DNA of 64,000 bases from an uncultured Verrucomicrobiae bacterium. Lineage in GTDB: Bacteria; Chlamydiota; Chlamydiia; Chlamydiales; Rhabdochlamydiaceae. This document shows, piece after piece, positions 20,096-20,848 of the stretch. The DNA lies in the NCBI GenBank assembly GCA_963718565.1, contig OY970364.1, positions 1,504,001 to 1,568,000 of the forward strand, written 5' to 3'. The position numbers and the translations under genes are program-made. Under the pieces are notes generated by a model. The model was not told the DNA's origin. It was given only the letters and a program-made list of their open reading frames with translations, and did no database searches. The first letter of the stretch is position 1, and every line of letters starts with the position of its first letter.

Positions 20096-20848
20096 TTGTA
20101 TTTTTTAAGAGGGAATTGCAAAACTCCTCGCCAGCAGAAAATCGATGATTTTGGCACCTGTTGCCAGAACCCGCACAGCGGGTTCGCCAAGGCGACAGGT
20201 GCCAAAAGCGCGATTTTATGCGGCGAGGAGTTTTGCAATTCCCTCTTAATTTTAGACACAAGCACAGATCAGTGCTTGATCGCACTGGCAAGGGAAAATC
20301 AGATCATCGCTGAAGAAATTTTTGCCCATGGCAATCTTCTTTCTCATCGGCTTCTTCCAAGCATCCACGCTCTTATCGAGGCACATATCCAATCCCCTAA
20401 GAATCTTAAAGGAATTGCATTCGGAATTGGCCCTGGCTCATACACAGGAACACGGGTCGGCGTTGCCGTCGCTGAAAGCCTTGCGTTCGGGCTGCAGATC
20501 CCCGTTAAAACATTTCCTTCACCACTTGCCTTTCTGCCTAACAAAGAAGGGTCCTTTGCTTTTCTCATTCCCACCAGATCAGGTCATTTCTATGTCCTTT
20601 CGGGATCTATTTCTTCCTCGCAGATCCTTCCAAAAGAAGCATCCGTTGTGAATAGGGAAGAGCTCGAAAAATTCGAGGCTGCAGACTTTTTAATCTGCTC
20701 GTCAGACCAAGACCTTCCTCCTGCATTTAGAAAAAAACTGCTTTTTCTTCCCTCTCCTAATCTCCTATTGTTGGGCCATTTTCTTTCTGAACAAGGACCT
20801 GTTTCTTTAGAAAATGTTGAAGTTCTCTATACCAACAACTTGAAATAA
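20096..20848 (+). CDS. tsaB: tRNA threonylcarbamoyladenosine biosynthesis protein TsaB with a 47-codon in-frame palindromic insertion
   Basis: ILDTS and [13 protein letters not shown] motifs. Removing the repeat restores TTG-TAT-TTT-TTA-ATT-TTA-GAC-ACA-AGC (MYFLILDTS). An alternative in-frame ATG lies at 20057. Confidence 0.88.
20108..20246. repeat. Palindromic MITE-like element, family A, inside tsaB
   Basis: AGAGGGAATTGCAAAACTCCTCGCC...GGCGAGGAGTTTTGCAATTCCCTCT flanked by TA (TTAA context). 139+2=141 bp. Confidence 0.92.

Follow-up and report, generated by a model that had tools for sequence, protein, structure and literature searches.

What becomes of an essential gene when a mobile, hairpin-forming repeat lands within its first few codons? 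The question is raised by tsaB, which encodes a subunit of the t6A pathway, in the genome of a Rhabdochlamydia (a single contig of 2,284,058 bp). We analyzed a stretch of 64,000 nt of this genome (contig OY970364.1, 1,504,001 to 1,568,000), referred to below as the window; coordinates are positions in the window, and numbers prefixed with "el" are genome coordinates. The first four codons of tsaB are separated here from the remainder of the gene by a palindromic element, which a first-pass annotation had described as a mobile repeat inserted in frame. Our analysis showed that the element is a miniature inverted-repeat transposable element (MITE) and suggests that read-through translation, giving an N-terminally extended and functional TsaB, is the best explanation of the locus, with a probability of about two in three. 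The insertion, its place in the ancestral coding sequence, the repeat family and a filter on the frame and stop codons of its copies were all observed directly in the DNA.

The locus consists of TTG TAT TTT TTA (20096-20107), the element, and ATT TTA GAC ACA AGC, which encodes ILDTS (from 20249). The element (20109..20245, 137 bp, with no strand assigned) is read in the tsaB frame and is an internal-deletion derivative of a 257-bp class of the same family. A repeat search placed its left terminal inverted repeat, GAGGGAATTGCAAAACTCCTCGCC, at 20109..20132 (+ strand) and its right one, the reverse complement of the left, at 20222..20245 (- strand). The target-site duplication TTAA flanks them at 20105..20108, where its TTA is codon 4 of tsaB (Leu), and at 20246..20249, where it re-forms a Leu codon just before ILDTS. 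The palindromic sequence of TTAA makes the arms look longer, as perfect inverted arms of 28 nt (20105-20132 and 20222-20249, separated by 89 nt and 100% complementary), and makes a "TA" duplication seem possible. The first-pass annotation had proposed such a TA duplication and a stop-free total of 141 bp; the total holds, and the duplication is TTAA, of the 4-bp length that is duplicated perfectly in 51 of the 71 paired copies of the family. The 137-bp element and the 4-bp duplication thus add 141 nt, or 47 stop-free codons, and the 47-aa peptide lies exactly between MYFL (codon 4) and ILDTS in frame 20057..20848, as had been claimed. The G+C content of the element is 54%, compared with 43.6% for the genome.

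The open frame of the present tsaB gene (20057..20848 including the stop codon, + strand) encodes 263 aa from an upstream in-frame ATG or 250 aa from the TTG at 20096..20098 (+ strand), and the public gene call, P0007, has the longer form of 263 aa. An alignment with 19 TsaB relatives, none of which carries the 47-aa insert, has 21 invariant columns and keeps the I(L/I/V)DTS strand. The distance from the start codon to this motif is four codons in 17 relatives, three in one and five in one; the start codon is ATG in 18 and TTG in one (L034). Because the relatives start three to five codons before I(L/I/V)DTS, we regard the TTG at 20096, four codons before the insertion point, as the ancestral start codon and MYFL|ILDTS as the ancestral N-terminus, which places the element inside the ancestral coding sequence at codon 4/5. 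Removing the insert restores a normal-looking start, in agreement with the first-pass annotation. The ATG at 20057 was rejected as the ancestral start because it overlaps promoter-like sites and the start in relatives is four codons away from ILDTS; it may nonetheless be used today. No in-frame ATG, GTG or TTG occurs inside the element or up to strand beta-1, as the first-pass annotation had also noted in finding no clear start codon between the element and LDTS; the next in-frame candidate, a TTG at codon 75 of the stop-to-stop frame, lies past beta-1. The alternative it had raised, translation starting only downstream of the element, thus has no canonical start codon before beta-1 to draw on.

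The conserved TsaB body downstream of the element (199 aa, 20249..20845, + strand) is 79% identical to its nearest named relative, the TsaB of a Candidatus Rhabdochlamydia metagenome-assembled genome. Comparison with the closest orthologue gave a dN/dS of 0.21 at a dS of 0.65, values that span the whole divergence from the relative, which is mostly older than the insertion, and cannot date selection relative to it. The protein matches PF00814 with 45.3 bits (cut-off, 24.8), and in a scan of the genome with this profile only TsaD (genome 757089-757958, 288 bits) and this TsaB scored above the cut-off, a third match falling below it. The gene is present in 37 of 40 related genomes. The first-pass annotation had considered a dead tsaB backed by an intact copy elsewhere; we found a single TsaB, with its body intact.

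The palindrome in tsaB is not a chance structure, and its 24-nt end recurs 217 times in the genome. Positions 4-83 of the tsaB copy are 100% identical to the left end of the 257-class copies (left 80 nt), and positions 82-143 match the right end of these copies at 95-100% identity (right 61 nt); the deletion junction between the two parts was found in no other copy. Because it is near-identical to the 257-bp class over both halves and has a private deletion junction, the tsaB copy must be young, and it may have shrunk in place after insertion. Short-read metagenome contigs, from runs that are possibly the assembly's own source, match the locus on both sides. One contig (record 9, run X4, 20015-20186) covers the left junction without differences, with 94 and 78 nt on either side, and another (record 2, run X1, 20228-20486) extends from tsaB 18 nt into the right arm. 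Four metagenome runs yielded no tsaB contig with an empty site, at a depth of 2-4; contigs drop rare variants, and this result is therefore silent on polymorphism.

To describe the family, we searched for its ends with the 24-mer, allowing up to 4 mismatches; the 217 ends form 71 inward-facing pairs, and 75 ends are unpaired. The 71 paired copies are 47-335 bp long, with main size classes of 182 bp (23 copies), 257-259 bp (19 copies), 71-72 bp (6 copies), 56 bp (3 copies) and 133-137 bp (3 copies). These classes are nested internal deletions of one another, and the differences among the 257-, 182- and 137-bp lengths (75, 45 and 120 nt) are all multiples of three. The terminal repeats are 24-28 nt long, and the target-site duplication is 4 bp, perfect in 51 of the 71 paired copies. 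With its terminal inverted repeats, fixed-length duplication, small size and many copies, and without a transposase gene, the element is a MITE. No autonomous element with these ends was found by end pairing, at the ends of large repeats or among five abundant insertion sequence families, nor between the two far-spaced pairs of repeat ends that were checked in relatives. Apparent end pairs of 1634, 1740, 2055 and 2164 bp were rejected as autonomous elements, as they enclose ordinary genes (one such gene in the 1634-bp pair) or unrelated nested insertion sequences. ISAs1-like and IS607-like elements lying between such ends were likewise rejected as parents, being passengers nested in a sister family. 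An IS1380-like origin was rejected too: no element of the IS1380 type was seen with these ends, and the duplication measures 4 bp.

Most copies of the family are intergenic or located at the 5' ends of genes. For 22 paired copies, the reading frame stays open across the element and runs on into an open reading frame (ORF) of at least 200 aa. Genes were called here from ORFs, Pfam and orthologues rather than from annotation. Six intragenic copies were verified with orthologues. The tsaB copy is one; the others lie within a menF-like gene (Chorismate_bind; 148 aa before and 292 aa after the copy), without insert in 5/5 relatives; mutY, where the copy splits the NUDIX_4 domain (4/4 relatives with the region intact); a gene for an RluA-family pseudouridine synthase, inside PF00849 (5/5 by adjacent matches, 4/4 intact ones by inspection); an oppF-like ABC ATPase gene, after codon 17 (4/4 intact relatives); and a gene for a Legionella_OMP-family protein, after codon 4 (5/5 relatives). 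All six copies are a multiple of three in length (3n, with n an integer) and free of stops.

About ten more copies are probably inside genes, as judged from start codons and signal-peptide shape. They concern a SET-domain protein, a MORN lipoprotein, an SBP_bac_3 protein, an FKBP protein, an SGL protein, a GT92 glycosyltransferase, a Gly_transf_sug glycosyltransferase, PBP4 and two proteins of unknown family, the PBP4 and Gly_transf_sug cases being ambiguous. For the SBP_bac_3 protein (el135133), five relatives gave no orthologue at E 1e-20. Four open copies lie in the 5' leaders of YitT-family, AIR synthase, DEAD-box helicase and IMPDH-family genes and are open by chance, and two are doubtful. 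Among the 71 paired copies, none was found to break a recognisable gene by a stop or a frameshift; the remaining ones lie upstream of starts or past ends. The inference of the first-pass annotation that the repeat family spreads into coding genes is supported by six verified and about ten probable insertions.

The reading frames of these copies point to selection. In only three of the six combinations of orientation and phase is the consensus of the 182- and 257-bp classes free of stops, and the intragenic copies use open combinations in 6/6 verified cases (binomial p 0.016) and in 16/16 verified and probable cases. The 257-259-bp class divides into two subfamilies. In one, of 257 bp, the frame of 8/8 copies runs on into ORFs of at least 200 aa; its copies lack a central TAAGTAG and are 3n with their duplication; seven of the eight have one common compensating +1 indel and the eighth a different one. 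The other, of 258/259 bp, keeps the central TAAGTAG and is intergenic in 11/11 copies (257 vs 258/259, Fisher p 1.3e-5). Copies that land in genes thus persist only if they are 3n and stop-free, which is a frame and stop filter at the DNA level. The first-pass annotation had named a lack of frame bias among intragenic copies as an outcome that would count against it; the six verified and roughly ten probable copies are, on the contrary, all 3n and stop-free. Since skipping or excision of the element would make its length and stops irrelevant, ordinary decoding is favoured, and the pattern is the main, indirect evidence suggesting that copies of the element are translated.

Two reading phases of the element are used in the intragenic copies. 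The polar phase (RGNCKTPR...EEFCNSL) is used in the six cytoplasmic proteins. The hydrophobic phase occurs in eight copies (el135133, el923878, el1018889, el1182912, el1736469, el1881167, el2027781 and el2050868), all within approximately the first ten codons of signal-peptide-like proteins; the association of phase with protein type gave a Fisher p of 0.007, for a classification made post hoc and by eye. In the hydrophobic phase, the outward-reading repeat contains GAGGAG-TT-TTG with the TTG in frame (MQFPL), possibly a portable ribosome-binding site and start codon, and a variant of the repeat in a relative (L109) has an in-frame ATG at the same place. Restart at the TTG of the repeat would, by hypothesis, rebuild a near-native signal peptide. 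Such a repeat-borne restart is not available to tsaB, because the repeat contains no start codon in the phase of that gene. A broader reading, which we put forward tentatively and at somewhat less than even odds for all of its parts jointly, is that a MITE superfamily of Rhabdochlamydia has adapted to life inside genes, where it would be translated and serve as a recurrent source of new protein segments. Its size classes differ by multiples of three, and on this reading the subfamily confined to open frames has lost its central stops. The polar phase would then supply a disordered peptide tolerated by TsaB, MutY, MenF, an RluA-family enzyme and an ABC ATPase, and the hydrophobic phase, with its repeat-borne start, could rebuild the N-termini of exported proteins. 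The Rickettsia elements would thereby have a convergent equivalent in a second phylum of intracellular bacteria associated with arthropods.

For tsaB itself, we propose that a young, non-autonomous, hairpin-forming MITE jumped into the gene at codon 4/5, and that the gain of 141 nt, in a phase and orientation free of stops, kept the frame open. Ribosomes would start at the TTG at 20096 or at the ATG at 20057 and read through the element, and the product would be a TsaB with an unstructured 47-residue segment ahead of an otherwise normal fold. The tsaB insertion is one case of a family-wide pattern in which copies in genes survive only if they are 3n and stop-free, as in the Rickettsia palindromic elements (RPE). 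Structure prediction with the insert, which the first-pass annotation had proposed as a check, agreed with a disordered tail on an intact core. In an AlphaFold2 model from a 20-sequence alignment, the TsaB core had a predicted local distance difference test (pLDDT) score of >90 from approximately residue 50, with a predicted template modelling score of 0.78, and residues 1-42 had a pLDDT of <50 and no secondary structure. Strand beta-1 was modelled at residues 49-54 (SLLILD), so that SLL, supplied by the element and the duplication, would replace the native YFL. Published reconstitutions of t6A synthesis have worked with TsaB proteins tagged at the N-terminus, which makes an N-terminal extension plausible. 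A model of the RluA-family protein with its insert (5 sequences) reached a mean pLDDT of 38 and was unused. Two overlapping sigma-70-like promoter matches at 20037..20084 (+ strand), found by consensus only (3 found vs 1.1 expected), would have the transcript begin downstream of the ATG at 20057 but upstream of the TTG at 20096.

Several observations weigh against this explanation. RNA of 20070-20275 (206 nt) is predicted to fold into a hairpin of -114.8 kcal/mol (z -15), whose base lies 10 nt past the TTG and which is followed by UUUU; such a hairpin could hinder initiation or terminate transcription. We infer the translation of the element in tsaB and the function of the product from the DNA, and an intact frame downstream of so young a copy says little about function after the insertion. 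The copies showed no significant avoidance of stops since their insertion (joint P 0.10), because with 0-9 substitutions they are too young. Most of the N-terminal cases were placed inside their genes by eye, from start codons and signal-peptide shape, and the classification covered the paired copies, so that broken genes at the 75 unpaired ends or in sister families would go unseen.

The same hairpin underlies the alternative that the insertion knocked tsaB out, or strongly down, leaving a recent pseudogene or a deleterious allele whose open frame is a mere leftover. The very young age of the copy and the extremely stable hairpin at +10 from the start, followed by UUUU, would fit such an allele, and the genus is rich in insertion sequences, with cryptic pseudogenes reported in one of its members (PMC9723776). 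We nevertheless consider it unlikely, as this is the sole tsaB in the genome and the gene occurs in 37 of 40 related genomes, no empty-site contig was found in the four metagenome runs (depth 2-4), and the intragenic copies found are all 3n and stop-free, which implies selection against breaking such genes. Restart at the 3' boundary of the element, from a non-canonical codon such as the ATT at 20249, would yield a near-native TsaB with the element as a long structured leader. It draws on the GAGGAG in the right repeat (20225-20230), on the other phase, whose in-frame TTG (MQFPL) could account for the eight copies in N-termini of signal-peptide genes, and on the variant with an in-frame ATG in the relative (L109). 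The tsaB phase, however, has no ATG, GTG or TTG in the repeat, the GAGGAG is 18 nt from the ATT and thus too far, and the region is base-paired in the predicted hairpin. ATT starts are, moreover, rare and weak, and we regard this route as improbable.

Identical TTA codons flanking a very stable hairpin also recall ribosomal bypass, and the first-pass annotation had allowed that the element might be skipped as an RNA hairpin; either bypass between the two TTA codons or removal at the RNA level would give native TsaB. The arrangement has formal parallels in phage T4 gene 60 and in mitochondrial byp elements, in which hairpin-forming inserts within coding sequences, flanked by identical codons, carry stops and are skipped. 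Known bypasses are, however, far shorter than 141 nt, and the tsaB insert, unlike those in gene 60 and byp, is stop-free, 3n and much longer, with no stop or obvious stall site past the take-off codon. Skipping would make frame and stops irrelevant, yet every intragenic copy found is 3n without stops, and open frames contain none of the stop-bearing 258/259-bp copies, so that the family-wide filter points to ordinary decoding. The element also matched no Rfam family, the one hit (E 0.36) reaching 15 bits where the gathering score is 298. Skipping is on these grounds disfavoured and very improbable. That the assembly collapsed a repeat into tsaB is conceivable for a multi-copy repeat in an assembly that is possibly metagenome-derived, but short-read contigs bridge the left junction without differences and enter the right repeat from tsaB, and the target duplication is perfect and the deletion junction private to the tsaB copy; an artefact has a negligible chance of being correct.

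Among known systems, the RPE come closest. According to a review (PMC10969869), these elements (Ogata et al. 2000, 2002) are hairpin repeats lying in frame in many genes; the sections of the review used here call in-frame MITE fusions "not unusual" and their frequency among RPE unusually high, and leave Chlamydia unmentioned. As described there, RPE and the family studied here are both hairpin repeats of ~100-250 bp in an obligate intracellular host, with several subfamilies. Both lie in frame in a wide range of unrelated genes, some with housekeeping functions, and the conserved peptide that they add leaves the gene unbroken. Unlike RPE, the present family is found in Chlamydiota, in the genus Rhabdochlamydia; it has the full hallmarks of a MITE (terminal repeats of 24-28 nt, 4-bp duplications in 51/71 copies), most of its copies are intergenic or at gene 5' ends, and it splits into a stop-free 3n subfamily confined to open frames and a stop-bearing one confined to the outside. 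By analogy, we would describe the element as a MITE working like an RPE, likened to it by behaviour in a Rhabdochlamydia host and not filed in the families RPE-1 to RPE-10. With bacterial MITEs such as Correia/NEMIS, ERIC and BOX, as covered in the relevant sections of the review (PMC10969869), it shares terminal repeats, a target duplication, many copies without a transposase, AT-rich targets and occasional in-frame fusions to ORFs. It differs from MITEs in general in the high share of copies in open frames (6 verified and ~10 probable of 71 paired) and in that no autonomous insertion sequence with its ends was found in the genome or between two far-spaced end pairs checked in relatives. Literature searches, which left supplements outside their scope, found no prior description in Chlamydiae, and the first-pass annotation had likewise known of none. 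The terms "MITE", "palindrom" and "miniature" are absent from the main texts of two Rhabdochlamydia genome papers (PMC9723776, PMC6490308), which, in the portions used here, discuss transposases.

Protein-coding palindromic repeats have so far been treated as a peculiarity of Rickettsia. Their occurrence in a second, unrelated obligate intracellular lineage would suggest that they are a general outcome of mobile hairpins in small, gene-dense genomes under strong purifying selection. The selection filter is unusually clear in this genome, with stop-free 3n copies within genes and stop-bearing copies only outside them. For annotation, such copies would account for Rhabdochlamydia proteins with unexpected internal loops or N-terminal extensions, and they warn against calling the genes concerned pseudogenes. 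The tsaB case may serve as a natural experiment on the amount of extra N-terminal sequence that an essential subunit of the t6A pathway can bear.

Related sequences occur in other genomes. With up to 1 mismatch, the 16-nt tip of the repeat was found 272 times in this genome and 68 and 62 times in two congeners. Within the genus, 15 of 19 genomes contain at least one match, and a reversed control pattern gave 0-1 matches. Across the family Rhabdochlamydiaceae, the DNA of the element matches 7 of 41 sampled genomes, including this one. In one relative (G001), element-derived peptides lie in long open frames of ksgA, a hemW-like gene and a gene for an exported protein (L107, L109, L110), and in another (G004) a copy lies in the leader of truA (L112). 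A public Peptidase_S13 protein of another organism (P0004, 510 aa) contains a diverged copy of the peptide, 80% identical, in its middle, with the frame open. The genes for the MORN lipoprotein and the glycosyltransferase also have diverged copies at their 5' ends in relatives (G004 and G001, respectively), in other orientations or phases (L102 and L094 vs L057 and L061), and these 5' ends have therefore been struck repeatedly. Upstream of the lipoprotein copy in this genome, the residues IFWRRILQL resemble a remnant of an older copy, and a truncated copy follows codon 5 of the gene for a DUF1343 protein. In G013, whose assembly is 64% complete, the rluA-family gene (L081) and the oppF-like gene (L086) look broken, with a stop or frameshift and matches in pieces.

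The window contains a second copy of the family at 2920..3106 (187 bp), which is intergenic and has an imperfect duplication (CTAC/TTAC). Sister families share a 14-nt repeat tip and have other internal sequences (e.g. GAGGGAATTGCAAAACTAAC...); their ends occur in the window at 62178-62265, 59914-59927, 63277-63290 and 7154-7167. The tip is present 398 times in the genome, compared with the 217 ends of the family studied here. Divergent from tsaB, at 16727-19990 (- strand), lies an ORF of 1087 aa. A 1041-bp insertion sequence with a 364-aa ORF occurs three times in a 15-kb part of the window (27186-28227, 33716-34754 and 40880-41921) and ~15 times in the genome as a whole. Large repeats (600 bp or more), including ISAs1-like and IS607-like elements, cover ~216 kb of the genome.

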